A stretch of DNA of 64,000 nucleotides, taken from Selaginella moellendorffii (taxonomy: Eukaryota; Plantae; Lycopodiophyta). Within the stretch, counting starts at the first letter, position 1. The number at the start of each line of letters is the position of its first letter. The notes below the pieces were generated by a model. That model searched no databases and was not told where the DNA came from. It worked only from the letters and a program-made list of their open reading frames with translations. Position numbers and translations under genes: made by a program. This document shows, one piece after another, positions 35,557 to 63,861 of this stretch. Location of the stretch: positions 336,734-400,733 of the forward strand of contig NW_003314279.1 of the NCBI RefSeq assembly GCF_000143415.4, given 5' to 3'.

Positions 35557-38500
35557 TCATCTTCGCGTCAAACTATAAACCACTACCTTAAAGGCTTTGC
35601 TTAAACGAGTACGAGTTGGGGTTTGATTTTGCTGCTGCTGCTGCCGCTGCTGCCGTGAAGAATTTTGATTCTGCTCAGCCTGCCTCGCTGGGATTAACAG
35701 GTTTTGGATCGCCGACTGGAGCGTCTCAGCGAAATCAATGGTTCCTGACGTAAGGTCTCGGCCGGAAATCCTCGGACCATTCTGGAACCAGTTTTCCGGC
35801 CCAGCACCGCCCTGTTGGATACCTTGCATTTGTTGGTCTTGTGTCTGTTCTTCCACTGGCCGCTTTAGAGCTGTCAGGACATTGCAGAGATAGTCGATGT
35901 CCGCAGAGCTCCTCGCTCGTTTAAACTGCAAACGCCACAGATCTGCAGAGCACAGCCACCTGGAATATCTATTTTGAAAAGTTCTATAGAATTCTGAGAG
36001 CGGGACAAACCTTCTGTTGCAAAATATTTCGCAAAAAGTAACTAGCTTTAAACCATGATATTCCTGAAAAGGAAAAAAAGCGAATCCCATCATGCAAAGC
36101 ATAAACATCAATCTTATTACCTTTCACTTCCTTCTCTTTTCTTGGCACCTAACGCTGGCTTTGAAAGCGTTAACGTAAGGAAATCTTCGACAATCTTGCA
36201 TATTGAGGATCTCAGCGATTTTACCCAGTGACTCAGTTGTCTCGGCACGAGAAGGTCCGGTTCCAAGTAAATCAGCTTTTAGGAGTGGTGGAGTAGCGGA
36301 TGAGTACGAGGGCCAAGCCATTTCAAAAGCACGTTTGTTATGAACGGTGTCCATTGATGCTGAAGGTACATGAGCACCATCATCTCTGGAAAAACATTTA
36401 TGAAGCATACACAAAATTAAAAAAACGCCTACCTGTAGTTTTTGGCAGTCCAATAAGGTTGTGCTTCATAAAGCACAGCCTGGATTTCATACAGTTCTCT
36501 CCAGTTACAGTCCTTCCAGAGCTCATCGAAAGCAATCTGGGAAAAAAACATAAAAAAAGATATAACTAGAGATTCTAAAAATATTTACCGTGAAAAAGGA
36601 TTGAGCTAAAGGTAGCGCATCGTTCTCGGGGAGTATGGACCAATCCAAACCCCGGTTTCGCTCGATGGTTGCATATGCAGTACTGAGATCACCGGTAAAG
36701 GAAGCCAACTTCCAAAAAGACTTGATATTTCCTGCTGCCGTTAGAAGAGATGTAAACGTTTCTTCAACATCTCTTGTAGATGGATTTTTTGCTTTTATTT
36801 CGTTCCAAACCTGCAAGGAAGAAATTGTTACAAGCTAAACTTCTAGTGGAATTGTTCACCAGATGTTTCATTGCGTACGCCATTTCAATTCGGATTTGCC
36901 GGAGGTGCTCGAAATATGGAATCTGCAACATTGCTGATGTGGATAGTGTTCCAAACAGCACGACGTTTTGTATGCCACCATTGCGGTGTAGCTCTGCAAC
37001 GCTGTCCGGATTCACTGTACTCACAATGCCCGTGTCGAGCAAGACACGCGCAGGGACTTGCTTGACACAGGCAATCTTGTCATGGCCATTCTCGCCACTG
37101 CCACCAGTCTTAACGATGAATTCCTCTCGCGACAAGCCTGCACAGCCGCAAAACCAAAAATCTATTGAGAAAGCGTGAAAGCTTTCAGGGACATACCTGG
37201 AACTTCGTGGTGATGATCGTCACCTACAGACGTTGTGAGCAGTTTATTCTTGGCTACAGCAGAAAAGAAACAGGAAATTAGAGACAAAATGAACAAAAAA
37301 ACGATCAATACTCTTGTCCAGCTTGGTCTCGTAAAAGTCCTCAATCGCCAATGCCGGAGCTGTCCCTTTGAGGTCCGCGTCCCCCTTTGGAAAGTCAATG
37401 GGCTTAATGGTGAGTTCTGCTAATTCTTCTCGTGACAAGCCTGCAAAGCCAAAAATCTATTGAGAAAGCGTGAAAGCTTTCAAGGACATACCTGGAACTT
37501 CGTGGTGATGATCGTCACCTACAGAAGTTGTGAGGGGCTTATTCTTGGCTACAGCAGAAAAGAAACAGGAAATTAGAGACAAAATAAATAAAAGAACGAT
37601 CAATACTCTTGTCGAGCTTGGTCTTCTCAAAGTCCTCAATCGCCAATGCCGGAGCTGTCCCTTTGTCCCCCTTCGGAAAGTCAATGGGTTTAATGGTGAG
37701 TTCTACTAATTCCTCTGGTGACAAGCCTGCAAAGCCAAAAATCTATTGAGAAAGCGTGAAAGCTTTCAGGGACATACCTGGAACTTCGTGGTGATGATCG
37801 TCACCTACAGACGTTGTGAGCGGTTTATTCTTGGCTACAGCAGAAAAGAAACAGGAAATTAGAGACAAAATGAACAAAAAAACGATCAATACTCTTGTCC
37901 AGCTTGGTCTCGTAAAAGTCCTCAATCGCCAATGCCGGAGCTGTCCCTTTGAGGTCCGCGTCCCCCTTTGGAAAGTCAATGGGCTTAATGGTGAGTTCTG
38001 CTAATTCTTCTCGTGACAAGCCTGCAAAGCCAAAAATCTATTGAGAAAGCGTGAAAGCTTTCAGGGACATACCTGGAACTTCGTGGTGATGATCGTCACC
38101 TACAGAAGTTGTGAGGGGCTTATTCTTGGCTACAGCAGAAAAGAAACAGGAAATTAGAGACAAAATAAACAAAAGAACGATCAATACTTTTGTCCAGCTT
38201 GGTCTTCTCAAAGTCCTCAATCGCCAATGCCGGAGCTGTCCCTTTGTCCCCCTTCGGAAAGTCAATGGGTTTAATGGTGAGTTCTGCTAATTCCTCTGGT
38301 GACAAGCCTGCAAAGCCAAAAATCTATTGAGAAAGCGTGAAAGCTTTCTGGGACATACCTGGAACTTCGTGGTGATGATCGTCACCTACAGACGTTGTGA
38401 GCGGTTTATTCTTGGCTACAGCAGAAAAGAAACAGGAAATTAGAGACAAAATGAACAAAAAAACGATCAATACTCTTGTCCAGCTTGGTCTCGTAAAAGT

Positions 38501-39650
38501 CCTCAATCGGCAATGCTGGAGATGTCCATTTGAGCGCAGCCTCCCCCTTAGGAATGCAAATGGTGAGAATCTCATCCTGGAGATTAAATATTGCACCATC
38601 AACGTCAGCATGACGAGGAACCACAAGGTTCTCGGGGCGGAACACGTCCTGCTCCGTGGTAACAAGCACACCCGGTCCATCTTTTGCAACATGCACTTGA
38701 TCCAACGACGTGAGACCTGCGCAAGAAACAAATAAGATAACATCATCCACAAATGACTTACCGGGCACTTGCACATAGAACTGGTGGTTCTCAAACGACG
38801 ACCACAATAGCTTCCGCTCGTCATATCCTGCAAGACACAGAAAAAAGAATAAAAAACTCCAGGCAGGATCAACCATACCTTTATCAATGTTCTTGAGGCA
38901 GTTTAGCAGCAGCTGGTAAGCGTGTTTCTTCTCAAAGTTGTAGAGAGCGACGAGACCCCCGTGACGAGGGAACTGCGGCAGGCCCCCCGCATCAGCCACC
39001 TTCCGCGCCAACTCGAGGCTCCTGGCACACCTCGTCAAGTACTCCGTCGAGAAGAGATCTCTTGGAACAACTACTGTAGCATATGATTCAGAGCGCTCCT
39101 GGATCAGAATGGAGAGGCTCATGGACTGCAGACCAAAGAGATAGCACTCAGCGGCAAACGCAGGCGCCTGCTCCTGCAACTCGTGCACGTTTGGCTCCCC
39201 AGAGAAGACTTCCTTCTCGGCTCGGCAGGCAACAGTCCGGCAAAAGTCATGCACGAGGCGAGTTCCTTCCTTTGTGCGTTGATGGATGGGTGGCTCTCCA
39301 AGCAAGCGGCACCTTGCATAATTGGTCACGAGCTTGATCATGCGTTGATACGGGCAAGGGTAGTCGCCTATGTCGTCAAGCCCGAGTGGTATTTCAGCGG
39401 GCGAGGGGAATTCGCCGCTCACATTGTCGGTGTACTTGAGCATGTGGTCGGTAGCATCACAGTCGCCTAGCGCCCCAAAATCTTGGCCGAGGACACGGTT
39501 GAGCATCACCACCCACAGAAACTCTCCATACTCGTTGTAGCCATCGTCTGTCGGTGGTTTCCTCACTTGGAACCCTTCGCTCCTAGCGCTTGCTGTGTGG
39601 ATGCGCCGCCTACAACCCGCGCTTCCGGTCTGAAGCAGTCGCCTCAACAT
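35557..39650 (-). CDS. Unknown multi-exon protein with a mitochondrial-type presequence, an alpha-crystallin/HSP20-like segment and tandemly repeated exon pairs
   Basis: Arg-rich N-terminus MLRRLLQTGSAGCRRRIHT; segment VPRHADVDGAIFNLQDEILTICIPK resembles HSP20 beta8-beta9; canonical introns throughout. Confidence 0.55.
37140..38540 (-). repeat. Tandem repeat of alternating 295/286 bp units (581 bp higher-order unit), each with two exons and two introns
   Basis: Landmark CTATTGAGAAAGCGTGAAAGCTTT recurs at about 37162, 37457, 37743, 38038 and 38324. Confidence 0.95.
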
Positions 39651-41917: not shown

Positions 41918-43066
41918 TGTAGCACACGTGGTTTTGACCCTTTATCTTATGGTAGGATAACACCATGAAGTGGAACCTAAACCCTCTATGTGCCATGTGT
42001 CATATGCCACATGTCACATACCACATGTCCATAGGACAATGGTATGGAACCCGAGGTTCAGAGCCTTGGGCCACTAAATGAAGGAACAATGCCAAATTCC
42101 TAAGCATAGAGCCAAGGAGTGATAGAACCGGACCACAGAGCAATTTCCAAGCATATAGCCCAAAGAGTGAAGGAACAAGAGCTTGGAGTGACTTGGAACA
42201 GTCCTAAAGCAACTAGCATCCTATTGCCATGACCAATATGCAAAACGGAGCCAAAAAGAGTCTGGAACTATTTCGGCATACTGGTGGCCTAACGTAAGGA
42301 CATGGGTACTCCACTAGCTAGCATGGAATGGAGTGTTGGCCTTAGACCCAAGCCAAATGCAGAACAAGGACAGGCATGCAAGTGGGAGCTATACTATGCC
42401 TTAGGTTGGTCGGCCATGCCCAACCTACCCATTATCTGTACTATACATTTGGAACCCTCCATAGGCCCCCCCCCCCCCCCCGCCCCGCGGAGGAACACAC
42501 GCTTTGGGCTTTCACCCCAAGCTTCCCTTAGTATTAGGAGTTAGTCTCTAGGACAAGCTCGAAACTTACTAAATATGGAATGTCTTTAGATTGTGAATTC
42601 GGACATGAAACGAATACCATTGTGTTTAGGACAATCTATACATTCCGTAGATATGCCAAATGAGCAAATTTGGATATTTTCCATAAATAGCATTTGGGAC
42701 CAAAATGAGACTAACACAAAGGGCATGATAGCAAGGGTGTTCAGCAGACATGGTAAGCTATTATTTAGTGAATATTCAGAGACCAAGCTCAATATCATGG
42801 GAGTTCTCAACACTAGCAAGTGCAAGTCAACAAATGAATTTGTCTAACCAGGTCAAATATGCTTGACTAAATAGACACTTAGGAATTCCTTCTTTATGCT
42901 CATCTAGTCAAGTACACATGTGAAGACCAGTTTCTCAACTAACTTAGGCGGAGACTGATAACGAGTCTAGCAATACCAACCTCCTACCGTCGTGGTAGTA
43001 AGGAAAGAGTGTTCGTAAGGACTGGCTGATAGATAACTTTCGATACCCAAAGTCATATTCACGACA
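41918..43066 (-). repeat. 3' LTR of the outer element
   Basis: Direct-repeat match to 57993-59117; TG/CA termini; adjacent PPT. Confidence 0.9.
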
Positions 43067-43211
43067 CTCTCCCCCCCTAGGAAAGTTTGATGTCCTTGTC
43101 GATGCATACTCGAGTCTAGAATACCGCCAAGGAAACAACTCCAGAAAAAGTTCATGGTATTCACACTATATGAAAAATGCACCAACTTAAATGAGTTAGG
43201 AGGCAACTTCT

Positions 43212-44358
43212 TGTAAGGAACCAACTCGCCGAGGTGTCGTAGGCTAAAGGAACCCTGAAAGCATGACCAAAATGACAAAGAGTTCATTGGATGGGACCAA
43301 GTCGAAGGTCGAGTCTAAGACCGACTCTAGGACCGAGTTCGAGATAGAGTCCGGAATCGAGTCTGAGACCGACTCGGGGATCGAGTTCGAGTCCGAGTTC
43401 GAGACCGAGTTCGAGGCGAAGTCCGAGATCCGAAATCGGGTTCGAGACCGAGTCCGAGGTCGAGTCCGAGGTCGGCTCCGAGATCGGGTCCGAGATCGAG
43501 TCCGAGATCGAGTCCAAGACCAAATCCGAAGTCGGATCCGAAATCGGGTTCGAGATCGAGCCAGAGACTAAGTCCAAATACTAATACGGGTCAAGGGGTG
43601 AAAGCCCAAAGCGTGCGTCCCCCAGGGGGGGGGGCTGCAGGGGGTTCCAAAAGTATAGTAGGGATAGTGAGGTCCAGGAACCAATTTTGAAGGGACTCTC
43701 CAGTGGAGCTCCCAAACCGACTTGAGGTTGAGACTGGGACCAAGGGGCCTTGGGTGGGAGTGAGCATGGACTTGGCTGGTGCCGGAGGGGCCATCCAAGG
43801 AAGTGCTCAAGAGCAGCTCCCACTCCCGAAAGGGAAACCGATTGCGGTGCTCCCGGCTCATGTGGAGTGGTGCCCCACTTGAGTACCATGCGGCTCATTG
43901 GTCCTCGCCCTTCCTAGGGGCTTGGGCCTTCCTTTGGGATGGAAGTGGGGGGGTAGAGGTACCCATACCGGGCCGCTAGGCCATGGTGTTTCGCCCCGGC
44001 GTCCTGAAGCAAGTGTTGCACTCAAGACTTGGGATTTAGAGGGTCCCATGATCAAGTCTTGTGGTACCAAGGGATGTTAGGAACCTGGAAGCTTGGTGTG
44101 CTTGGCTGCTTGTGCTTGCGGGGAGTGTAGCCGAACCTTAAGTCTAGTCTAACCCGGGGAGGGGGATTGGGAGTGAATTGGGAATCCGTGGAAGGATGGC
44201 TAACACTCCGTTGCTCATGCAGTGAGTAGCTGAAACCAAGTAGGAGCTGGTACCATAGGCGAGAACCTTAGCAAGGGAACTTAGCAAAAGCCAAGGCAGT
44301 GTTGGACGGATAGACGAGGTAAGCTGGCAAATTGGAAAGGAAAAATTTGTGGCTTACA
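43212..44358 (+). repeat. 5' LTR of the chromovirus, containing a GAGTCC/GAGATC-type hexamer tract
   Basis: Matches 49590-50732 with scattered SNPs and small indels. Confidence 0.95.
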
Positions 44359-44417
44359 ATTTGGTATCGGAGCCTTTTTCTCAGTTCTAGCGAAGGATAG
44401 AGGCGGATTGCTGGGAG

Positions 44418-47400
44418 ATGGCAAAGGCAGGGCGTAAGCGAACCAAGGCAAAGACGGAACCTCCGCCCGAGCTGGAGCCTCCGGTCGAACAAGAGGCTAT
44501 GGATGAGGAATCCTTGCATGAGGAGGACTCCAGTGAGGAAACTTCCAAACAGGAGTCCGGTGGCGAGGTGCGGTCGTCCAAGGCTCAATTGGATGTTCTA
44601 GAAGGACAATTGGCACAGACCAATGCCCTGCTGGAGACTCTCGTACACAAGCTAAAGCGTGACGAGAAGCGGAAGAAAAAGCGAAAGACTGCGGATGCTG
44701 GCAGCGCAGAAGGTGCGGACCCTTCGGTAGGGACTGAGGCAGAACCAAACAAGGTCGAACAGACCGAAGTGGAATCAGTCCCTCATGCAGTTCCCAAGTA
44801 CAAACCAAAGCCCCCACCGGTCTTCAAGGGAGTGAATGACTATAAGGTGGTGGAGGATTGGTTTTACGATATGGAAGACTACTTCCGAGCGTTGCGGTTA
44901 CCAAGCTCGGAGAAGGTCCCATGTGCAAAACCATACTTGGCAGATAATGCCAAGTCTTGGTGGAGAACAACGGAGGCCAATGAAGGACCGGTGGTCACCT
45001 GGGACATGATGAAGGCGAGGATCCGCGCAACATATGTTCCTCCGAATGCCACTCTGCATCTTAGAGATGAGTTGAGTAGGCTGAAGCAGACTGGAACTAT
45101 CCAGGAATATGTGAATGGGTTCATGGCAAAGAGGATACTTGTCATGGACATGGGGGATATGGATGCGTTCCATGCCTTCATATCAGGTTTGCAAACCTGG
45201 GCTCGCGGTGAGGTAATGCGCTGGAACCCGACCAACTACAAGGAAGCGTTGGATGCGGCCATCAAGGTGCATTTCAACGATAACCTGCAAAAGGGGAACA
45301 CGACGGGGTCGAGATCCACGTTTAGCAAAGGGGCCAAACCAAGGGGAACGTATAGCAGGGGGAAATTCAAGAAGAATTTCTCTAAGAATAAGTCCTCGGG
45401 GTTCCGGAAAGGCAAATCCGGTGGCCAGCGAGCGAGTATGTGGGGGAGTCAAGCGAAAAGGGACAAACCCACGGACAAGAAGGTCAAGTCATATAGCAGC
45501 GTGGGAAACAACGTATGCTACAACTGTGGTGAAGCGGGACACTTTTCGAGGGAATGTCCCTACCCGAAGAAGGCCAGAGCCAATATGGCCATCAAGTCGG
45601 GTGAAGTCCAAACTGAGGTATGTGATCCAGTCCCTAACTCAAAGTTACTCATTACACGAGCAACTTTGGTAGAGAGTCGTTCGCGACATCTACTAGCCCT
45701 CCGAGGGAAGCTTGGAGGTAGCTTTGTTAAGATCCTTATTGACACGGGTGCTTCGGATAATTTTGTGGCTGCAGACATAGTCCGGCAAGCCGGACTAACG
45801 GTGCAGCGGCTAGGCGAACCAAGGACTATAGAGTTTGTTCAAGGTAGCCAAAGCACCGATGAGGTACTTCGACAAGCGAGAGTCGAAGTAGGGACTTGGA
45901 AAGTAGACATGGATTTCACCGTGTTGGACATGGCGGGATTTGACGTGATCTTCGGAATGGATTGGTTCAATCGGTTCGTGGTAGCCCTACATGGACAAGG
46001 TAGGAACCTTGTGGTACTGGCGAATGCCCAAGGAAGAAGATCTAGGGTGGAGGCCCAGGATCTAAAGGTAGGGCAAAGCAAGGCCAAAGAATCTTGCTTA
46101 AACCTGGTGTCCACGAGAGAACAGCTCACTAAAGGAACTAAGGCAGCCTTTTTGTGCTTACTCTCGGTGAAGAGTGACAAAAAGACAGGAACGGAAGAAG
46201 TACCTTTAGTGATCCAGTGGGTGTTAGACCAATTCCAGGATACCATGCCGGAGGAGCTACCAGCGGGGTTGCCCCCCGCACGACCGATAGAACATAAGAT
46301 TGAGATAATCGAGGGCGCTGAGGCGGTGGTTCGTCCACCCTATCGATTGAATGAAAAAGAACTCGCGGAGCTCAAGCGCCAACTAGAGGAGTTGGTGGAC
46401 AAGGGTTATGTTAGGTTGAGCAAATCACCATATGGGGCGCCGGTGCTATTTGTGAAAAAGAAAGATGGGTCTATGCGCATGTGCATAGACTACCGGTTGC
46501 TCAACAAGTATACCAAGAAGAACAAGTACCCTTTGCCAAGGATTGAGGACCTGTTCGATAGGTTGGGAAAGGCAAAATACTTCTCGAGAATTGACCTAAG
46601 GTCAGGATACTACCAGATCAGGGTAGCGGAGGAAGATGTCGAGAAGACAACCTGTCGAACAAGGTATGGGAGCTTCGAGTTTCTGGTGATGCCCTTCGGG
46701 CTATGCAATGCGCCGGCAACGTTTTCGGCGTTGATGAACCATATCTTTGTACTCTATCTCGATCACTTTGTGGTCGTCTATATTGACGACATCCTGATCT
46801 ATAGCGAAACGCTAGAGGAGTATGCCAAACACTTGACGAAGGTGTTTGAGAAACTAAGGGAACACCAGCTGTATGCTAAAGAGAGCAAATGTGACTTTGC
46901 TCAACAGGAGGTAAAGTTTCTCGGGCATGTGGTGGGCAAGGACGGGCTCAAGGTGGACCCTGAGAAGGTCCAAGCGATCCAGGATTGGGAGCGACCATCG
47001 AATGTACACGAGTTAAGGGCATTCTTGGGGCTATGCAACTACTATCGAAAGTTTATCAGACACTATTCGAGAGTAGCCCTGCCCTTAACGGACCAAATGG
47101 GAAAAGGGAAGATGGTATGGACAGCGGAATGCGAGGCGGCATTCGTCCACCTCAAAGGGAAGTTGAGGAAGGCTCCCGTGTTGGCATTACCAGACTTTGG
47201 TAAGGACTTTGAGGTAGAAACAGATGCTTCAGACTTTGCGTTGGGCGCAGTTTTGAAGCAAGACAACCATCCAGTAGCATTCTTCTCGAAGAAGTTGGAC
47301 AAGGCTCAACGGAAGTGGCCTACCCATGAGAAGGAATTGTTTGCGGTGGTCAAGGCGCTCAAGGAGTGGCGACACTACGTTGGGAGACACTTCAAAGTTT

Positions 47401-49188
47401 ACACGGACAATATGGCAACGAAACACTTCTTGTCACAGCCCGACCTAAGGGGAAAACAAGGTCGGTGGGCCAATGCTTTGGCCGAGTTTGATTGCGAGAT
47501 TCTTTACAAGCCTGGGAAGAGCAACATCGTGGCGGATGCGCTAAGTCGAAAAGTGAGCTTGAAGTTGGCGATATCTAGCGCGACAGCAACCTTTTGGGAT
47601 GATGTGCGGACTGCATACGAGAACGATGGTCTAGCACAAGAAGTGTTGCTGAGGAATCTAGAGGCGCGGGAAGCTCACCAGAGAGGTGAGTTGCCAACGG
47701 AAGAGGAAACGGTCTATGTGGAACGCAACAGACTCATATATTATAAGCAAACGAGGGTGTATGTTCCAGAAGGGGAACTAAGGAAGGTAGCCTTGGAAGA
47801 ATGTCATGACGGACCTCTCGCGGGACACGGCAGAGTGCCCAAGACGATGGGCTTACTCAAAAGGAAGTATCACTGGCCAGATATGGCTAAGGACGTCCAA
47901 GACTATGTAAAGACATGTCCAACATGTCAGCAAGTCAAAGCCGTGACTAAGGCTAGTGGGGGCTTGTTGCAAAGCATCCCCATTCCAGATCGTCCATGGA
48001 AATGTCTCACGATGGACTTCATCACAGGACTACCCCCAAGCGAGGGGTTCGATGCAATATTCGTGGTGGTGGACCGATTTTCGAAGATGGCACATTTCAT
48101 ACCCACCACAACGGAAGTGGATGCGGAAGGTGTGGCGAAGCTCTTCGAACAAGTGGTTCGAGTGCGGGGAAGGCCAGAAGAGATTATCTTAGATCGAGAT
48201 AAGATCTTCACCAGTAGGTTCTGGAGGACACTCCTAGAACAGTATCGCACCAAGTTGAAATTCAGCACAGCCTATCACCCACAGATAGGTAATGGGTATT
48301 AAGTCAAGATTGATGGCACTAACACTTCTTGACAGACGGACAAACGGAAAGGGTGAATAGGCAACTGGAGGATTATTTGCGATGCTATGTCTCAGGAGAC
48401 CAGACCGACTAGGTAAGTCATTTGGGACTTGCGGAAATGTGTTATAACAACTCACCACATTCGAGCATCGGGGTGAGTCCATGGGAAGTCATCAATGGGC
48501 GAGCTATTGAAGGTCCTATGGAACTCGGCGTGGCCGAGTATCATGGAGAGTTACCCGCAGTGGAGGCATTCACGGCGGAAAGACTCAACATTTGGAATCT
48601 AGTGAGAGATTCCTTGGAACGGGCTCAACAAAGGCAAACTAAGTACGCAAACCAAAAGCATCGGGATGTGGAGTTCCAAGCTGGGGAGAAGGTGTGGCAG
48701 AACACCAAGAACCTCAGGCTACCAAGTGGGATCAGCCGGAAGTTGACCCAAAGGTAAAAATGCATGTATTCCTGTAAATGAATTGATCTTGAGTTCCTTA
48801 AGCAGGTTCGCAGGGCCTTACTAGATTGAGGCTCGAATCGGTAAAGTGGTTTACCGTCTCCGACTTCCTCGAGAGATGGGGAAGATGCATCCCGTGTTCC
48901 ATGTGAACTTACTCAATCCGTATTTTGAGGATCCGCTTCGCAAGGACCAAGTAAGACCTTTACCTGAGGTTATCCAAGGGGAGGAGGAATACGAAGTCGA
49001 GGCCATCCTCAATGCGCGCAAGAGCAAGTGACAAGGACGCGAGGTGAGAGAGTTCCATATGAAGTGGAAAGGATTTCCACACTGCGAAGCAACATGGGAA
49101 CCGGAGGAGAACTTAGCGACCGCGCGAGATCTTGTGGAGGAATTTTTGCATGGCAGAACTCTATGTACTTATGCAAAGTTCAATTAAA
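44418..49188 (+). CDS. Gag-Pol polyprotein (Gag, CCHC knuckle, protease, RT, RNase H, integrase, chromodomain). The continuous ORF ends at 48302; the rest is reached via putative introns 48289-48335 and 48754-48805, and this copy has three nonsense codons
   Basis: [37 protein letters not shown] zinc finger, LTMDF, DRD..QTERVN, RFAGPY and [13 protein letters not shown]...TWEPEENL. Confidence 0.92.
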
Positions 49189-49589
49189 AATATCAATTTG
49201 AGAAGTTGAGCAATGGCATATGTTGGGACCCGAAGGCGTGCCGAAGGTATGCTAATTAGCATGGGTTAGCTAGGTCGACCAGGTGTAGGGAACTACGCCC
49301 GACTCCCTGCGGGGATGTCGAATCCGTAGATGTATTCTACGGAGGTTGGGTTCAAGTCCCAACCCCCTAGTAAAGCAAGGCTGGGTTCAAGTCCCGACCC
49401 CATACTAGGGCGTGGTGAGGTGAGGAGTATAGGGACACCTATACTCCGTTGTCATGGGCTCTTGGCCGGGGAGGCTAACTTAGGCACACCGCTAAGTGGG
49501 GGGATGCCCCCGGAGACATGGTCAACAAGTCGTAGGATAAAACGAGACGTTCGATGTGGGCATCAAACTTCTTCTATGGGTGGTGGAGT

Positions 49590-50732
49590 TGTAAGGAACC
49601 AACTCGCCGAGGTGTCGTAGGCTAAAGGAACCCCGAAAGCATGACCAAAATGACAAAGAGTTCATCGGATGGGACCAAGTCGAAGGTCGAGTCTAAGACC
49701 GACTCTAGGACCGAGTTCGAGATAGAGTCCGGAATCGAGTCTGAGACCGACTCGGGGACCGAGTTCGAGTCCGAGTTCGAAACCGAGTTCGAGACGGAGT
49801 CCGAGATCCGAAATCGGGTCCGAGACCGAGTCCGAGGTCGAGTCCGAGGTCGGGTCCGAGATTGGGTCCGAGATCGAGTCCGAGATCGAGTCCGAGACTG
49901 AATCCGAAGTCGGATCCGAAATCGGGTCCGAGATCGAGCCAGAGACTAAGTCCAAATACTAATACGGGTCAAGGGGTGAAAGCCCAAAGCGTGCGTCCCC
50001 CAGGGGGGGGGGGGCTGCAGGGGGTTCCAAAAGTATAGTAGGGATAGTGAGGTCCAGGAACCAGTTTTGAAAGGACTCTCCAGTGGAGCTCCCAAACCGA
50101 CTTGAGGTTGAGACTGGGACCAAGGGGCCTTGGGTGGGAGTGAGCATGGACTTGGCTGGTGCCGGAGGGGCCATCCAAGGAAGTGCTCAAGAGCAGCTCC
50201 CACTCCTGAAAGGGAAACCGATTGCGGTGCTCCCGGCTCATGTGGAGTGGTGCCCCACTTGAGTACCATGCGGCTCATTGGTCCTCGCCCTTCCTAGGGG
50301 CTTGGGCCTTCCTTCGGGATGGAAGTGGGGGGGGGTAGAGGTACCCATACCGGGCCGCTAGGCCACGGTGTTTCGCCCCGGCATCCCGAAGCAAGTGTTG
50401 CATTCAAGACTTGGGATTTAGAGGGTCCCATGATCAAGTCTTGTGGTACCAAGGGATGTTAGGAACCTGGAAGCTTGGTGTGCTTGGCTGCTTGTGCTTG
50501 CGGGGAGTGTAGCCGAACCTTAAGTCCAGGGGAGGGGGATTGGGGAGTGAATTGGGAATCCGTGGAAGGATGGCTAACACTCCGTTGCTCGTGCAGTGAG
50601 TAGTTGAAACCAAGTAGGAGCTGGTACCATAGGCGAGAACCTTGGCAAAGGAACTTAGCAAAAGCCAAGGCAGTGTTGGACGGATAGATGAGGTAAGTTG
50701 GCAAATTGGAAAGGAAAAATTTGTGGCTTACA
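49590..50732 (+). repeat. 3' LTR of the chromovirus
   Basis: Matches 43212-44358 and is followed by TSD CTTCT. Confidence 0.95.
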
Positions 50733-53700
50733 CTTCTTTGACTAACACGGATGTGCTACTAGCTCGGACACCTTCCGGTTGTCGCCGATAAGGAAATGAC
50801 TAATAGAGTTAGCCACCCTTGCTTACTCTGGTTGTCACCCAGCTTACAAAAGTGTGATACGCCCTTGCCTGTAGAGACATAGAGAGAGAAGCCAGAAGCC
50901 CCAACCCTTATGAGCAAAGAAACCAAACCCATCAGTAAGGTTTAGATAGACTACTGTAAACAGGCAGTTAAAGTTGTTTACATGGTCACACCCTTTGAAC
51001 GGAATAAGGAACATTGACAGAGAGGCAGGTTATGTGACTAGTCAACAGTAGCTACCCCATGATTAGAGATTTCACTATACACACAAAAGACTTAATTATT
51101 AGTGAATAAATCTTAGATTAGAACACAAAAGTATTTCAAGTAAGTTATCATCTGATAAACTAGTATTGTAGGATAGGAACCACCAAGATCATCATGTTTA
51201 GAAACATAAGATTCACTATCCAACAAAATTCAATAGCAAGGATATCATCAAACAAACTCAATGATAAAACTTAACTATTAAAGATTGTAGATAGTATGCC
51301 AGACAACTTACCAAAGATATCTCAAAGAACACAAAGTATCATTGACTGACAAGCACAATGCTCGCAAATGTATCGCCAAAGGAAATAACATCCCAACCTA
51401 TTAGAACTAACTCAAGCAATAATCAACAGAACAAAATGAATGTGGTAAGACCAGCAAACACCCACTCATGCTAACTATCACAAAAGCCAATTTGAATAGA
51501 TCCTAGTCAATAATACTAAAAAACTAAAGTTGCTTAAGCAAGTGTCAGCAACATCCTATTGGTGTCTCAAACCCAAGAGACCAATCCAGAATAAACTACA
51601 AAGAACATGTGGTATTGCGAAAAGCCATAAGCTATCAAAGATAACAACTAACCACCATGAAAGATCATCAATCATCCTATCGATAGAGAGATGCATAATC
51701 ATCATCAACGAAAGAATCCACCATCCTGAAGAATGGCAAATCATTCTAGATGTTGATAATCAAGCAAAACTTTTACCAAGGATAATCAATTATCCTAAAT
51801 AAAAGTCAATCATCACCTATGATTGCCAGATGCAAAAGCCAACTTCAACATCAAAGCTAATAAGCCAAAATGCTTTTCCCAACAACTTCTAACAAATGGA
51901 ACAATGAGCATAAAAACTCAAAAAACCAAAAGCTCGAAGAAGCTTATAGCCAAATCTTGCTTAACAATGATCACGAGTCTCACATGAACTAACTTCAATG
52001 CTAAGGAAGAAATCATGGTGCAACCCACCATATCCCCCTCAACACATCTATAGCCAAACTTCATAATGCCAAAGTTAATAAAGAATATATCTGTATCAAT
52101 CCAAAAGCTAAGCACAATGAAGCTATGCTCAACAAGTGATCACTAAATGATCCTCCATGAATCCATCTTTAGCAAGACGTAACTCACTTCATAACAAGAA
52201 CAAAAAGAATCATCAATGATCAATATATCCCAACTCAAATCCAATAAGGATTCAAACATTTCAATATTGATCACTAACTCTTCGTTTCGTAAAGCTAGTT
52301 TAGTCCATGACTGAATCACTTTTCAAGGAAAAGCCAAAGCTCAACCTCTACTAAATAATGTTATCTAGAATATAACCAACTCAAATTTGCCACTTAGCAC
52401 GTTTGAATGCCAATAAAGTTGTTAATTAGTAAATGCATGAATGCCAATAACAAAAAGCTACAGCTCAAGCATCAACACTAATTGCATCGAGACTAATGAG
52501 ACTCAATATCAATCCTACGGAGAGACATCTCATCTCATTTGAATCTCAACATCAATAATGTCAACAACAAGGCATGACTTCAATACCATTAACACTAGAA
52601 CAAAGCTAAAAGAAATCAAGAGTGAATCACCACTCAAAACTCCCTAACAATTAAGCTAACCAAAGTTGAAGATACTTTAGTTAGTATCCGAGACAAAGCC
52701 TTCAACAAAACTCAGTTACAAACAACACTTCCTTAAGGAGTGAATCACCACATCTAAGACTCAATGAAATCCAACACTATGAACTAAACGCAACCAAATG
52801 ATATCGATAGAGGCAGAGTTGACATGCCAACATGGAAAACCTATGTAAGTCTAACGACACAATCCTTCGCAACACTATCCAGTAAAGCAAGCCCATCACT
52901 GCTAAATCTTCATCGAGCGAAGCAAGTGTTAACATTTCTTGACAAAGGCTACAAGCAATCACTAGTTGCCAAACAATTAACAATCACTCTTCAACTTGCC
53001 TTCACAAGACCCAAACACTAAACTCATGCCATCAAGTCATATACTCATCCAACATGAATGTAATACCCCAAGTATGAGATAAAGGTTCATGTGCAAGCAC
53101 GAAACTAAATGACCACTCAAATCCAACTCAACTGCAATAAGTTCACTAATGCATTTAGCCACTAGTTCTGAGCATGCTTTGAAGAGGCTAGCTATGCATG
53201 ATCAACACTCAGCCAAAACTAAAGTGAAGACCATGAGATGAGTCCTCATAGACAAAGCTATAGTACGAGTACCAACATCTCGACTGCAAACAACTAAATT
53301 AGACATCACTATCCTTAGCCAAGGTGTAGGGCCACCAAGACCAAGTTAAGATCAGTGAGACTCTCATAAAGTCTTAACGAAATACAAGGTGCCACCTGCC
53401 ACCAAGCACAATGCTACAGAAGAAAGGCACAAGAGTCACATTTCTTAGAAAAGCGCAACAACCACTTTTTTACACCAACTCCAGACTCTATCTAACTCAA
53501 TTGTTTTAACTTCAAAAGTCAGCATCCCTTTCAAGTCGCATCATACAAATTATATACTAAGGTCTAAGTTAACTGAAGTCAATTCCAACCCTTTTACTAG
53601 TTTGTATTGGCTTATGAAAACAGAATGGTTTTCGAACAAAGTGACCGATAAATCAACCATTGGAAAAGCCTAAAAAACTTTGTGAATTTTTTTTTTCCAT

Positions 53701-54519
53701 TCTAGAGAAAGAATGATTCTCAATCCAGGAATGCAAACTTTCAAGACTCAACCAACTTCCTCCTACTAACAACTTCACAAAGGTTCATCTCAACACAAAT
53801 TCTCATAACCCATAGTATACTTAAACCTCAAAAATCATGCCCATTTTTCAACATCCGCAAAATGCAAAATGAACACCCAAGGTTTAATCACAAAAACCAC
53901 TTCTTTGGATATCCACATTGCACTAACACTCTTTTCCAACCACCTTCAAGATTCAATGTGAAGCCAAAACACTAACAAAAAAAATGACATGGAAAATCAA
54001 TATCTAAAGATAATTCCTCATCACTCGAAATAACAATGCCACTTCCACTAACATAAGTGCTAGCGATGTCAATGCTACAGCTACACACCTTCTTCATCCA
54101 ATAATTTACTCCAAATGCTAACGGATCAATTGACAAGCCATAACAAGTGAATTCTATAACCTTTTTCCAACACCTTAATGGGCACACTCCCCAAAAAACA
54201 AGGTACCAACTTAAGCTTAGCATAACGGACCACCATCGAGAATCCAGTCAAAGTTACTATAATGCTATTTCGTACAAGTAGATTAGCTTCACCATCAACC
54301 ACTTTGGGGTTGATCATCTTTAACCAAGTAACTTAGTAAACACATTATTTATTATCACATGGATATGATAGAAATATCACAATGACTTGATCATCAATTA
54401 AGCAACACTACAAGCAATGCCCATGTCATTACTACAAAGGTTTACATGAGTATCAAGTGTCAACTTGATTCGACAAAATGCAACATAAATGCCACATCCC
54501 ATCGATAGAGACTTATAAC

Positions 54520-57052
54520 TGTAGTGAATGTGACTTTAGGTATCGAAAGTTATCTGTCGGCCAATCCTTACGAACACTCTTTCCTTACTGCCACGATGGC
54601 AAGAAGTCGGTATTGTTGGTTCCCTTTATTAGCCCCTCTTGTTCAAGTGTTAGTTTACTGGGCTTAGCACCTGTACTTAGCCAGATGGACATAAGGTAGG
54701 AACTCCTATGTGTTTCTAGCTGAGCATACTCGGCCTGGCTCTTAGTTCTCTTTTGCTCTGTCTTGCACTGGCTTGACAAGAACCCTCGCATATTGAGATT
54801 AGTCCCTCAATATTGCTAGATGATAGCTTAACATGTCTGCCAAACACCCTTGCAATTATGCCCTTTGTGTTAGTCTCATTTCGTTAGACATGCCTCCTAA
54901 CTTATTTAAGTTGGTGCATTTCTCACATAATATTATCACCGTGAACTTTTTCTGGAGTTGTTTCTTTGGTGGTGGTCTAGACTCGAGTATGCATTAACAA
55001 GGATGTCGATCTTCCCTAGGGGGGGAAGAGTGTCGCGAATGTGACTTTAGGTATCGAAAGTTATATGTTGGCCAGTCCTTACGAACACTCTTTTTTTATT
55101 GCCACGACAGCAGGAGGTTGGTATTGCCAGTTCCCTTTATCAGCCCCTCTTGTTCAAGTGTTAGTTTACTGGACTTAGCACTTGTACTTAGCCAGATGGA
55201 TATAAGGTAGGAACTCCTATGTGTTTCTAGTTGAGCATACTCGGCCTGGCTCTTAGTTCTCTTTTGCTCTATCTTGCACTAGCTTGACAAGAACCCTCAT
55301 GTATTGAGATTAGTCCCTCAATATCATTGGATGATAGCTTACCATGTCTGCCAAACACCCTCGCAATCATGCCCTTTGTGTTAGTCTCATTCTATTAGAC
55401 AAAGAGGTTGCCTCCTAACTCATTTAAGTTGGTGCATTTCTTACATAGTGTGATCACCATGAACTTTTTCTGGAGTTGTTTCCTTGATGGTGGTCTAGAC
55501 TCGAGTATGCATTGACGAGGACATCAATCTTCCCTAGGGGGGAGAGTGTTGCAAATGTGACTTCAGGTATCGAAAGTTACCTGTCGGCCAGTCCTTATAG
55601 ACACTCTTTCCTTACTGCCACGACGGCAGAAGGTCGGTATTGCTGGTTCTCTTTATCAGCCCCTCTTGTTCAAGTGTTAGTTTACTGGGCTTAGCACCTG
55701 TACTTAGCCAGATGGACATAAGATAGGAACTCCTATGTGTTTCTAGCTGAGCATACTCAGCCTGGCTCTTAGTTCTCTTTTGCTCTATCTTGCACTGGCT
55801 TGACAAGAACCCTCGCGTATTGAGATTAGTCCCTCAATATTGCTGGATGATAGCTTAACATGTCTGCCAAACACTCTCGCAATCATGCCATTTGTGTTAG
55901 TCTCATTCCATTAGACAAAAAGGTTGCCTCCTAACTCATTTAAGTTGGTGCATTTCTCACATAGTGTGATCATTGTGAACTTTTTCTGGAGTTGTTTCCT
56001 TGGCGGTGGTCTAGACTCGAGTATGCATTGACGAGGACATCGATCTTCCCTAGGGGGGGAGAGTGTTGCGAATGTGACTTCAGGTATCAAAAGTTACCTG
56101 TCGGTCAGTCCTTACGGACACTCTTTCCTTACTACCACGACGGCAGGAAGTCGGTATTGCTAGTTCCCTTTATCAGCCCCTCTTGTTCAAGTGTTAGTTT
56201 ACTAATCTTAGCACCTGTACTTAGCCAGATGGACATAAAGTAGGAACTCCTATGTGTTTCTAGCTGAGCATACTTGGCCTGGCTCTTAGTTCTCTTTTGC
56301 TTTGTCTTGCACTAGCTTGACAAGAACCCTCGCGTATTGAGATTAATCCCTCAATATCGCTGGATGATAGCTTACCATGTCTGCCAAACACCCTCACAAT
56401 CATGCCATTTGTGTTAGTCTCATTCTGGTCCTTAATGCTAATTATGGAAAATGTCTAGATTTGCTCATTTGGCATATCTACGGAATGTAGAGATTGGCTT
56501 GAACACAATAGTGTTCGTCCCGTGTCCAAATTCACATTCTAGCGCCATTCCATATTTAGTACGTTTTGAGCTTGTCCTAGAGACTAACTCCTGGTACTAA
56601 GGGAAGCTTGGGGTGAAAGCCCAAAGCATGTGTTCCTCAAAAGGGGGAGCTATGGGGGGTTCCAAATGTATAGTAGAGATAGTGGGTAGGTCGGGCATTG
56701 CCGACCAACCTGAGGCATAGTTTAGCTCCTGCTTGTGTGCCTGTCCTTGTTCTGCGTCCGGCTTGGGTCTAAGGCCCAAGTTCCATTCCATGCTAACTGG
56801 TGGAGTACCCATATCCTCACATTAGGCCACCGGTATGCCAAAATAGCACCAGACTCCGTTTGGTTCTGTTTTACATACTGGTCCTGGCACTGGGATGATG
56901 GTTGCTCTAGGACTATTCCAAGTTGCTCTGTGCTCCTGTCCCTTCGCTCCTTGGGCTATATGCTTGGGAGTTGCTCCATGGTTCGATTCTATCACTCCTT
57001 GGCTCCATGCTTAATCACCATAGGATAAAGGGTAAAAACCACGTGTGCTACA
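54520..57052 (+). mobile_element. Tandem array of three units (about 511-517 bp; LTR 5' part + 3' internal segment + PPT) followed by one complete LTR, related to the outer element but inverted
   Basis: LTR start TGT.G..AATGTGACTT at 54520, 55031, 55547 and 56064, the last three each preceded by CTTCCCTAGGGGGG..GAG; ends GTGCTACA at 57052; flanks ATAAC/ACAAC. Confidence 0.9.
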
Positions 57053-57992: not shown

Positions 57993-59117
57993 TGTAGCGC
58001 ACGTGGTTTTGACCCTTTATCTTATGGTGATTTACCATAGGATAACACTACAAAGCAGAACCTAAACCCTCTATGTGCCAGGTGTCATATGCCATGTGTC
58101 CATAGGACAATGGTATGAAACCCGAGGTTTGGGCCACTAAATGAAGGAATGGTGCCAAATTCCCAAGCATGGAGCCAAGGAGTGACAGAACCGGACCACA
58201 GAGCAAGTTTTAAGCATACAACCCAAAGAGCGAAGGGACAAGAGCCTAAAGCGATTTGGAACAGTCCTAGAGCAACCATTGCCAAGACTAGCACGCAAAA
58301 CGGAGCCAAATAGAGTTTGGTGCTATTTTGGCATACCAATGGCCTAATGCAAGGACATGGGTACTCCACCAGCTAGCATGGAATGGAGTTTGGCTTAGAC
58401 CCAAGCCAGACGTAGAACAAGGATATGCACACAAGCAAGAGCTATACTATGCTTCAAGTTGGTCGGCCATGCCCGACCTACCCACTATCCCTACTATACA
58501 TTTAGAACGCCCCACAGGCCCCCCCCGCCCCGCCCCACCCTTGAGGAACACACGCTTTGGGCTTTCACCCCAAGCCTCCCTTAGTATTAGGAGTTAGTCT
58601 CTGGGACAAGCTCGAAACTTATTAAATATGGAATGTCCTTAGATTGCAAATTTGGACATAAAACAAACACCGTTGTGTTTAGGACAATCTATATATTCTG
58701 TAGATATGCCAAATGAGCAAATCTGGACACTTTCCATAAATAGCATTTGGGACCAAAATGAGATTAACACAAAGGGCATGATAGCGAAGGTGTTTAACAG
58801 ACACGGTAAGCTATCATTTAGTGAATATTGAGGGACCAAGCTCAATATCGCAGGGGTTCTTAACACTAGCAAGTGCAAGTCAACGAATGAATTTCTCTAA
58901 CCAAGTCAAGTATGCTTAACTAAATAGATACTTAGGAATTCCTTCCTTATGCTCATCTGGTTAAGCACATGCAAAGACTAGTTTCTCAATTAGTTTAGGT
59001 GGAGACTAATAATGGGTCTAGCAATACTAACCTCCTACTGTCGTGGTAGTAAGTAAAGAGTGTCCGTAAGGACTGGCCGATAGGTAACTTTTGATACCTG
59101 AAGTCACATTCACGACA
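57993..59117 (-). repeat. 5' LTR of the outer element
   Basis: Matches 41918-43066; PBS immediately internal; TSD CTAGC. Confidence 0.9.
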
Positions 59118-59122
59118 CTAGC

Positions 59123-59396
59123 CCTATGAATGGCCTTTATGCCACTTTACCTTTGCACTTAGCTTACAACCTCCATAAATCCTATTCCCAACTTAGGGAC
59201 TTATTAGCCCCGTAAATGGCCTTTATGCCACTCTACCTTTGCATTTGGCTCAAGTGCTCCATATGTCCAATCCCACAATAGATACCCAAATGTATCACTG
59301 ACATATCCATCTGTTACATTTGCACTTGGCTCAAATGCTCCATGTGTCCAATCCCACAATAGACACCAAATGTATCACTGACATATCCACCTGTTA
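59123..59396. repeat. Short tandem duplications (about 80-85 bp units) at the outer element's insertion site
   Basis: TTAGCTTACAACCTC.ATAAATCCTATTCCCAACTTAGGGACTT at about 41869 and 59158; TTTGCA.TTGGCTCAA.TGCTCCAT.TGTCCAATCCCACAATAGA at about 59238 and 59319. Confidence 0.8.
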
Positions 59397-60830: not shown

Positions 60831-62955
60831 TCAGTCCTTGTTCCTTTTAAAGACTCATTCACTGATTGCTTTATGCTTATTCCTTGAGCACTTTATTCGG
60901 GGTTTCACTCCTACTCTCAACTTTCCATGTCAGAGTTTTTGGTCTAAACATGTTACATTTGTTGGATTTCCACTTTAACCACTACAATATGGCACCCTTT
61001 CGGCTCCACTTTGGGGATTAAGAATTTTTGTTTCACAACTCCACCACCCATAGATGAAATTCGATATCATAAACCATTTTATAAAGTAACCCTATTATGG
61101 ATTACCACTTTTCATCCTTGGCACCCAATTAATACTAGTTAATGGTTTGACATCGAAAGTTCTTCATATCTTGTCCATTCTCTAAGGAGCATAATCTCTC
61201 CAACTTAAAGACTCATTAGACCACTTATAGTGGTCCTTCCCTTTTTGTTCATTTAGTTCATGCTAAACTTGCTAGAGATATCTTCTCTATTTTAATTTTA
61301 CTACTCATTTAGGAGTAATTTTAGCTTCTACTAACATAACCATTACATTCTAGAACTTTAATATTGACATCTTGTATCAATTTCTTAATGTGTGTCCAAC
61401 ACTTTACATTATATCGGTTATGCAAACCTCACTTCCCCATCTTATGAACTTTTTTACTTGAGGGCACCATCATCCTCTCTTTTATTTCATACCACCCTTG
61501 GCACTAAGTTTCATTTATCTATAAAGTTATCTATGGCCCTATCATTTGGCTACTTTATCACTTCATTTATTTTAGACCTTTTACTTTTGCCAAATTAGAG
61601 CATTTGGGAATCCATCTTTGGAAATATATTTCTTTTCCCATAATTCATTTGCCTCCACTACGTGAATGTTCCTTACCTAATTTGTCATTTGAATTCCTTC
61701 TAATAATTTCCATAGATGCTCTATTTCGTTAAAGTGGGATTTATTCAGTAAAATGGGACTAGGTACAAATTTTCAAGTATTTGAAAATGACGTGAAATTA
61801 TATGTTTTTTGTCCAGGGGCTAGACATATCTGGGGCATGGTGACTAGCGCGGTGACTTTATGTCCAGACTGAGTCCATCTGGTTGTATAATAAATCTCAT
61901 TGTCAAGGTGAACAAGCCGAATCTGAAGCTAAAGAAGAGCGATGGCATGCGCGCACACACTATTTGTTTGTTCATTGAGCGTGTGGTGAGCTTTCCAAGA
62001 TGAACATCATTCCTATTAGCCAGACATATAACTTAATGGTGAGAACATTTAGATATTATTCAATGTTATCTTTTTCTAACGAATCTAATTGTGAAGGTGT
62101 AGCAAGAGGCATTGCTAGTCTGGAGAAGTCATTTAACTCATTTGACCCTTAGTGTATTTTCATGAAACTAAATAACATTCATATTATTAAGAAATTTCTC
62201 TAGTACCTTTTTTTTACGACATAGAGGCTTGCATTTCTTTCAAAGGTGATTTAGTAAAAGGCTTGAGGGCATATGCCATTCTATTTCTCAGACCGGTATT
62301 AAGATATACTAGTGCAAAGGGAAAAAGGTATTTGGTGATCAAGTAAATGGCATGAGGGCACACGCCATTATAAGCCTAAGCGCTAGTGGACACCTCCTTT
62401 TTGGTACTCTCAGCGGTACTATCATCCTTCTCCGGGTCAGTTGTTTTGCTTTGGATTGTTGTCTCTGACGTTACTGGGGCGTTCTCGATAGTTGTTAATG
62501 TTGCCGTTTGTTCAGAAAAATGATCACCTGGAGTATAGTATGGGGAGTTTGGAAGACTTATATATTCTACATCTTCACCTATCTCCTTCTCCGTCTCCTT
62601 TTCTGCCTCACTTACAGATTTTGTGCTTGCCATGAGAACGCTCTTCACCCTAAAATATGGAGTTCGTTGTGTTATAAAAGGAAACCAACACACACGCTGC
62701 AAGGGAATGATGGTACATAAAGCACGTAAGCCCACAATATGGGTTTATGTGCCATTAATATGGGCCACACGCCATATTATTAGATTTATGCACGTGTGAT
62801 TGGTAAATGCATATGTCACATCATCTTTGTTTTACCTCACACACTATATCAGGCCTATATTATGCAAGGATAGAAATTCAATGCATGATTGTGGAGAGCA
62901 ATGGCATGAAGCCACATGCTAAATAACATTTTAGAGAAAGAATTAAAATAGAAAC

Positions 62956-63861
62956 ATGCAAACAGTACTGAGTGGACCAAGACTTAGAAGTGCACAATTG
63001 AATGAGGTATTTCTAATAAATACTTCACTCACCTCATATAGGAAGCCTCTTCAGTTTCATTTCAGCATGCGTGACGGTGCTCCAGTGATGAGGTACAAGA
63101 TGAGAGAATGGGACACAGTGTGGCTGCCAGTGGACAGCATTGAACTCTTCAAGAGAGATCCCATAACTGGGGAACCTATGATTCCTCAGGGTTCCCCACG
63201 GCCGATGCACCCGGATGGACTCAAAGACCAGGAAAGTATAGTGGCCAGGATTAGACAGCATATTGCCTTCTGGAAGAGGGGGTTGGTGTTTGGTGGAGAA
63301 TCCTATTTTCAGAGGTGCAAGCCTTTGCTCGAATACTGGGAGAAGATTATATCTGCTATCCAAAATGGGCCGGTTGTATATGAAGAATTGGAAGAGTCCT
63401 TTTGGCCAGAACCCAGAGCACCAGATAGTAGTGGAACAATGTCCTCTGGAAATGCAGTGACAGATAACGATGTTGAGGATCACTATTGTGGGCCGAGGAA
63501 CAAGAAGCCGGATTCAGCATTCAATCCAGTACAGGTCTGCAAAGGAATGGTCATGCTTGTCAAAACCAGTAATAAAAAACAAATGATATGGGTGGGGCGC
63601 TGCATCACTGATGCAGAGGAGGACGCGGAAACTAACTCCTTCAATGTAACTATGGAGTGGTTCAAGCCAAATTCCGGATATACGAAGGATTGCCTAGAAA
63701 AGAAATGGGTGCTGAATCCAAGGGATCCCAGCATGAGCATATCGGTGAATAATGTTGTGCATGGTTGGATGCGGAAGCAGAATGCCACCATCACCTTGCC
63801 AGACCATGCAAGAGATGCAGCAAGAGCATTCATAACCCGGGTTCAAGGTGAGATTCATTAA
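62956..63861 (+). CDS. Unknown protein, possibly the C-terminal part of a DNA-transposase-associated protein; the exon probably starts at 63041
   Basis: Long open frame with protein-like composition (KPLQFHF....G.PVMRYK..EW...WLP); acceptor CTCATATAG at 63040; no firm family assignment. Confidence 0.45.
   Translation: MQTVLSGPRLRSAQLNEVFLINTSLTSYRKPLQFHFSMRDGAPVMRYKMREWDTVWLPVDSIELFKRDPITGEPMIPQGSPRPMHPDGLKDQESIVARIRQHIAFWKRGLVFGGESYFQRCKPLLEYWEKIISAIQNGPVVYEELEESFWPEPRAPDSSGTMSSGNAVTDNDVEDHYCGPRNKKPDSAFNPVQVCKGMVMLVKTSNKKQMIWVGRCITDAEEDAETNSFNVTMEWFKPNSGYTKDCLEKKWVLNPRDPSMSISVNNVVHGWMRKQNATITLPDHARDAARAFITRVQGEIH

Follow-up and report, generated by a model that had tools for sequence, protein, structure and literature searches.

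The loss of introns is the classic mark of copying through RNA. The window analysed here, a stretch of 64,000 nucleotides from Selaginella moellendorffii, carries an LTR retrotransposon whose integrase frame is broken by two short, intron-like inserts, and the locus raises the question of whether these inserts are spliced, whether they belong to the family or only to this copy, and how an element that copies itself through RNA could hand them on.

The element occupies positions 43212–50732 on the forward strand and is a full-length LTR retrotransposon of 7521 nt. Its 5′ LTR (43212–44358, 1147 nt, TG...CA, with poly-G tracts and 12-nt repeats) and 3′ LTR (49590–50732, 1143 nt) are separated by a K2P distance of 0.025 and are bounded by the target-site duplication CTTCT, at 43207–43211 on the left and 50733–50737 on the right. 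The 12-nt repeats are imperfect and form a run inside each LTR (43290–43590 and 49668–49968), and a search of the LTR for TATA gave a single such string, with no second promoter apparent. A 13-nt primer-binding site of tRNA-Met type, recognised by comparison of the sequence with the description of SM1-Galahad, lies at 44362–44374 and presumably pairs with tRNA-Met; a polypurine tract is found at 49578–49589. Coding exon 1 (44418–48288) specifies Gag, a CCHC knuckle, protease, RT, RNase H and the integrase zinc finger, together with two catalytic Asp residues (48015 and 48192). Exon 2 (48336–48753) supplies the catalytic Glu (48347) and the remaining integrase core, and exon 3 (48806–49187, with the frame ending at 49185–49187) the GPY/F-SH3 domain and a group I chromodomain (about 48990–49145). 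The three nonsense codons noted earlier for this copy are present, one in exon 2 (48410–48412) and two in exon 3 (48822 and 49029). Pfam recognises Gag, CCHC, protease, RT, RNase H and integrase in the first frame, and SH3_Tf2-1 followed by Chromo behind the second insert.

The Gypsy domain order and C-terminal chromodomain found by Pfam are chromovirus traits, and the tRNA-Met primer-binding site, 5-bp target-site duplication and single frame for Gag and Pol match the Galadriel clade in the table of clade traits. The accessible text of Novikov et al. 2012 (PMC3350952) describes a Galadriel chromovirus of S. moellendorffii, SM1-Galahad, of 7.5 kb, with LTRs of 1076/1146 containing poly-G, a 13-nt tRNA-Met primer-binding site, a 3885-bp ORF without a chromodomain and short ORFs of 316 and 309 bp, the last of which holds a group I chromodomain; the family numbers hundreds of copies that are about 95% alike, none of them found to be intact. 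A gene of the window clusters at 90% with SELMODRAFT_97196, which places it in the same host. The window element agrees in size, LTR length and primer-binding site, and has the same 3885-bp ORF and two short ORFs, ATG-started frames of 318 nt (48437–48754) and 309 nt (48876–49184) counted without their stops. Its poly-G tracts are 7–12 nt long, against 11–25 in the published description (PMC3350952, accessible text). Judged against that description in size, LTRs, primer-binding site and ORF layout, the window element is SM1-Galahad. The placement in Galadriel is that of PMC3350952, again in its accessible text; in our quick RT-RH tree of 60 rows, none of them a named Galadriel, the window element groups with seed-plant elements and eight metagenome loci (99 SH-aLRT). 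The chromodomain equals a REXdb logo at 70 of 77 positions, compared by eye on the last-printed letter of each column, and has the aromatic cage. The logo used, the fourth, was taken as Galadriel from its LWQF variant and an aromatic share of 0.54, and by this comparison the family appears to be catalogued in REXdb as well. A sister family in the same genome, SM2-Galahad, is described as intact and abundant, with a single ORF of 1577 aa (PMC3350952, accessible text).

The original prediction had left it to be settled whether the family was already described. The family and its three-ORF layout were, in 2012, but its introns were not: the accessible text of PMC3350952 has 0 occurrences of 'intron' or 'splic', and a search of the supplement was likewise without a match. 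SM1-Galahad was read there as a family without an intact copy, whereas here the two breaks in its frame are introns. The family is thus already known, and its introns have apparently gone unrecognised.

The inserts lie where they had been predicted, at 48289–48335 (47 nt) and 48754–48805 (52 nt). The frame opened by the ATG at 44418 runs for the claimed 1294 aa of Gag-Pol, and its stop (48300–48302) falls within insert 1; when insert 2 is kept a stop follows immediately behind KLTQR, so that each insert both shifts the frame and holds a stop, as had been proposed. Insert 1 (GTAATG...GACAG, phase 1) is 62% AT and insert 2 (GTAAAA...AAGCAG, phase 2) 67%, compared with 50% for the upstream frame. 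With GT-AG ends, AT-richness and host-like size, both carry the marks of U2-type introns; three introns of a host gene in the window, for an RNA polymerase II subunit, measure 44, 59 and 70 nt, in line with the size match noted earlier. The branch point foreseen in insert 1 is there as CTAAC, with its A at −14, and in insert 2 the only candidate is TTGAT at −20. A direct count, made without joining the pieces, gives the expected 35 residues between the second Asp and the Glu. Aligned with Ty3 integrase, the sequence ahead of insert 1 extends as far as residue 1266, and the sequence behind it, a weak match (E 0.018), resumes at 1269; the gap is exactly two residues, the same two that the spliced junction supplies. 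Removal of insert 2 restores the GPY/F motif and the frame into the chromodomain, as predicted and as the Pfam matches behind it bear out. The 3871-nt upstream frame contains 2 GTAA..YAG segments of 40–70 nt, 0 of them with a branch-like motif, and the presence of RNA joints at both inserts makes the chance occurrence of intron-like segments moot. Ribosomal frameshifting was considered and is ruled out, as there is a stop in either insert, and relatives do not have the 47 or 52 nt that it adds.

The RNA joints come from a small body of material: runs X1, X2 and X3, with four contigs each and an RNA status that is a computed guess, and three raw runs, about 12% of each being read, which gave 6, 3 and 0 reads, the run with none being X17. 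One X1 joint skips 47 nt at 48283–48331, which is shift-equivalent to the predicted junction 48288^48336 because a C at 48286 in the family repeats GACAG at both ends. Another skips 52 nt, GT..AG, at 48751–48804, and is the predicted junction 48753^48806 cut two places on. Neither intron has any coverage inside it in X1. In X15, which is recorded as RNA and belongs to a separate study, one 150-base read over 48243–48439 has a hole at 48284–48330, a skip of intron 1 that is inferred from depth bins and is not listed as a joint. Both junctions are therefore seen spliced, the first in two runs, and the claim that the inserts are spliceosomal-type introns stands on their precise removal in these few observations and on their presence throughout the family.

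Intron 1 is kept in the X2 and X3 contigs, in X2 with a 1-nt deletion inside it, so that of the RNA-type runs covering it 2/4 skip and 2/4 keep it. Intron 2 is skipped in one RNA-type run (X1) and entered in X2, X3, X15 and X16, the X2 and X3 contigs extending into it. The intron-bearing X2 and X3 sequence could derive from pre-mRNA, from genomic RNA or from carried-over DNA. Alleles at 48718, 48727, 48728 and 48824 are found in the spliced X1 contig and in the X3 contigs that reach intron 2, and one sub-lineage is thus seen both spliced and unspliced. No single record among the RNA-type contigs and reads has both joints; the two X1 contigs differ where they overlap at 48394 and so are different copies. 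Exon 2 of the spliced, 734-nt X1 contig is interrupted by nonsense codons at 48500 and 48653, and the change at 48500 recurs in X2 and X3, the deep DNA-like contig being without it. The RNA seen hence stems from dead copies, and what it demonstrates is confined to recognition of the splice sites by the host; a few dead copies may dominate SM1-Galahad expression. One X2 contig leaves the element sequence at 48778, inside intron 2, with a continuation that has no match in the window, and within the same stretch three raw RNA reads (X15 and X16) cease to follow the element and continue with different sequence. Polyadenylation in intron 2 was considered for the reads ending there, but the X2 break favours a rearranged copy, and the reads and contig probably stem from one expressed, rearranged copy.

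For the state of the introns in the family as a whole we used X9 and X10, two runs of unrecorded kind that are taken as DNA-like from their deep, even cover (342 and 65 aligned contigs, with 16 of 408 pieces listed). Intron 1 is spanned without a gap by three X10 contigs (1, 6 and 3 differences), and intron 2 by two contigs, one of 901 nt from X10 at depth 37 and one from X9 at depth 132. Among the 342 and 65 contigs no joint skips either intron, the one joint listed being unrelated. Listed exon differences explain all those, 1 and 3 in number, by which the contigs closest to the window over intron 1 and intron 2 depart from it, so that their splice sites are those of the window; for the deep X10 contig 29 of 30 differences are listed, and none among these lies in intron 2. 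The inserts are thus common to the family rather than private, as the original prediction required. The three nonsense codons are private to the window copy: X10 has other codons at these positions, as has all or nearly all of the X9 depth. The 2012 multi-copy reconstruction ends at the same 3885 bp, which gives independent support for a family-wide break. Intron-less copies, which it had been proposed to look for, are absent from the DNA-like contigs, but contigs drop rare variants and a few such copies may exist. Most family contigs also have a 3-nt insertion at 48141 relative to the window copy, upstream of the second Asp. We are highly confident that the introns of SM1-Galahad are real and inherited.

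Related loci in metagenome contigs (n = 80, 47–56% identical) have no insert at site 1 in 77/77 measurable cases and none at site 2 in 66/66. Exactly two residues stand at site 1 in 228 of 272 fetched proteins, the motif being unmatched in the remaining 44, and the spacing from KL to GPY is five residues in 132 of 163 motif-matching proteins, as in the spliced reading. Since the related loci are without inserts and the SM2-Galahad ORF is continuous, both introns are, by this comparison of sequences, gains of the SM1-Galahad lineage. Searches of viral contigs gave no relative. Word-based searches of the protein collection gave no family protein (best identity ≤59% over the query region), exon 2 compared with 50%-cluster protein representatives reached 48% identity at best, and exact look-up of the first ORF in the protein collection returned no entry. 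A source for the introns elsewhere in the window was not apparent, the best local scores (12.5 and 11.5) staying below the maxima of 14 reached by shuffled sequence, and the two introns do not resemble each other. An AGGT repeat flanks intron 2, four letters that fit on either side, and in the family a 5-nt GACAG repeat flanks intron 1; the latter is weak evidence of origin, because CAG is expected on both sides.

From these results it is very probable that the integrase of SM1-Galahad is supplied through splicing. By the logic of the reading frame, full integrase would be made only from doubly spliced RNA: with intron 1 kept the polyprotein would end before the catalytic Glu, and with intron 2 alone kept the core would be without the GPY/F domain and chromodomain. 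Because the DNA-like contigs keep both introns, the RNA that is reverse-transcribed is likely to be unspliced; new copies would then inherit both introns, and spliced RNA would be largely excluded from reverse transcription. The least sure steps are that unspliced RNA may also be translated, into Gag-PR-RT-RNase H, and that incomplete splicing may hold integrase scarce relative to Gag and RT. Plant nonsense-mediated decay acts on RNA with an early stop and a long tail. The stop in the unspliced RNA lies 1.3–2.4 kb ahead of the possible 3′ end and, as a counterpoint to dose control, this RNA may be degraded rather than translated. An excess of Gag is obtained in other single-ORF elements by degradation of Pol (Ty5) or by gag splicing (PMC5580714, accessible text). 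We favour the whole model, with dose control by incomplete splicing included, by a little over an even chance. A more ambitious form of it, somewhat short of even and offered tentatively, has the spliceosome as an integrase-only switch in which spliced RNA is actively barred from particles. Its three outputs would be a product without the catalytic Glu, a core without its targeting tail and a full chromodomain integrase, and the barring would let two freshly gained introns be inherited in every round of reverse transcription.

In the alternative that survives best, an unlikely one, the RNA pools are sorted without dose control. The doubly spliced RNA would then be the sole message for all proteins and the unspliced RNA an untranslated genome pool, as in barley BARE, with the introns marking or merely revealing the pools. 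In BARE capped RNA is the one translated, and packaging draws on a separate pool that is uncapped and unspliced; the spliced RNA was not found copied into DNA (PMC3735527, accessible text). The empty introns of X1 would fit such a division, as would the fate of unspliced RNA, whose early stop and long tail would make it a decay target if translated. However, the single TATA string in the LTR offers no apparent second promoter, and the Gag excess that a single-ORF element still needs would be left unsupplied.

A second alternative dispenses with sorting and regulation altogether and we consider it rather improbable. The introns would be tolerated passengers, spliceable insertions in a founder copy that persist through inefficient splicing, most of the RNA that is reverse-transcribed being unspliced. 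The AGGT and GACAG repeats would fit insertion with a short duplication that created splice sites by accident, and in S. moellendorffii the most frequent form of alternative splicing is retention of introns, which favours short ones. Such a history would nevertheless be expected to leave intron-less progeny, which would always make full integrase, yet none is seen among the DNA-like contigs despite hundreds of copies, and both introns survive, not one.

That SM1-Galahad no longer has an integrase of its own and depends on that of SM2-Galahad for integration, with splicing incidental, is very unlikely. An intact and abundant SM2-Galahad shares the genome, the 2012 study found no SM1 copy intact (PMC3350952, accessible text), and the spliced RNA seen has nonsense codons; however, the dominant family contig has exons 2 and 3 open, and their variation is mostly synonymous. 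Taking variant sites from the best-supported 40 rows of 120 and of 79, changes at varying sites behind the introns are synonymous in 17/24 cases against an expected share of 0.34 for transitions (p 0.0003), and at sites splitting X9 into sub-lineages in 8/10 against the same 0.34 (p 0.004). The synonymous share does not differ significantly between copy-private and varying sites (p 0.11). Among the indels listed, one is in the coding frame and is 3 nt long; those of 1 nt lie in intron 1, or at or behind the final stop. The exons behind the introns thus look to be under selection, and this synonymous bias argues against reliance on SM2-Galahad integrase.

It is scarcely credible that the joints arise from rare intron-less DNA copies and not from splicing, for although X1 is only guessed to be RNA and contigs drop rare variants, the 4 shallow X1 contigs, in contrast to the DNA-like runs, include none that bears an intron, X15 is a recorded RNA run, identical alleles are found both with and without intron 2, and such copies would themselves require a splice at these junctions.

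Splicing through which integrase is supplied can be compared with known systems, as the accessible texts of the papers cited here describe them. Ogre, a Ty3/gypsy element of the Tat group, has an intron between protease and RT, where the gap averages 274 bp (PMC6317226, PMC4408406). Like it, SM1-Galahad has sense introns kept in genomic copies, spliced from part of the RNA and needed for downstream translation. Ogre has one longer intron, which gates RT, RNase H and integrase together, whereas SM1-Galahad is a chromovirus with two host-sized introns inside integrase, gating integrase alone. By analogy, then, SM1-Galahad works like the Ogre intron but is not a member of the Ogre type. BARE1, EVADE, the gag-splicing copia elements and CRR share with it a host spliceosome that divides the RNA and an unspliced form that is copied (PMC3735527, PMC5580714). 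The effect on the frame is opposite: in BARE1, EVADE and copia splicing destroys pol coding to favour Gag, and in CRR it removes RT, but in SM1-Galahad it completes the frame. Penelope-like elements also keep introns after transposition, but they are without LTRs or integrase, are copied by another route and have introns mostly outside the ORF (PMC8557442). The earlier list of known splicing in LTR elements named Ogre and gag RNAs and left out CRR, a chromovirus, as well as BARE with its separate pools of RNA. A 2025 review, in its accessible text, names Ogre and EVADE alone as intron-bearing plant LTR elements (PMC12786077), the main text of the REXdb paper mentions introns for Ogre only, and the accessible parts of PMC2864245, PMC9940879, PMC8557442, PMC12477816 and PMC7175516 hold no case of an integrase intron. 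The full-text literature, a scope outside which lie Repbase, subscription journals and REXdb additional files 1 and 3, gave no report of an intron in the integrase core.

A family that keeps two integrase introns in hundreds of copies would have to separate the RNA that is translated from the RNA that is copied. The introns are a built-in label for this separation, as reading their state in RNA from polysomes and particles, in extrachromosomal cDNA and in new insertions would show which RNA is packaged, and the intron-less SM2-Galahad of the same genome is a natural control. They would also resolve the published oddity of an abundant family without any intact copy, and they carry the warning that ORF-based pipelines can call competent families dead.

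Several other features of the window lie outside the element. A pair of repeats, 42061–43073 and 58124–59124, is 86% identical, 16 kb apart and brackets it, from which the SM1-Galahad copy may be nested in an older LTR element. The stretch 42915–43200 adjoins the 5′ LTR on the left, and the unit of a tandem array at 54510–56430 (four copies of about 516 nt) resembles it by eye. A 75-nt piece like the SM1-Galahad LTR is found at 56610, a second tandem repeat at 37148–38609 has five copies of about 290 nt in alternating types, and an open frame of 304 aa lies at 62947–63861.
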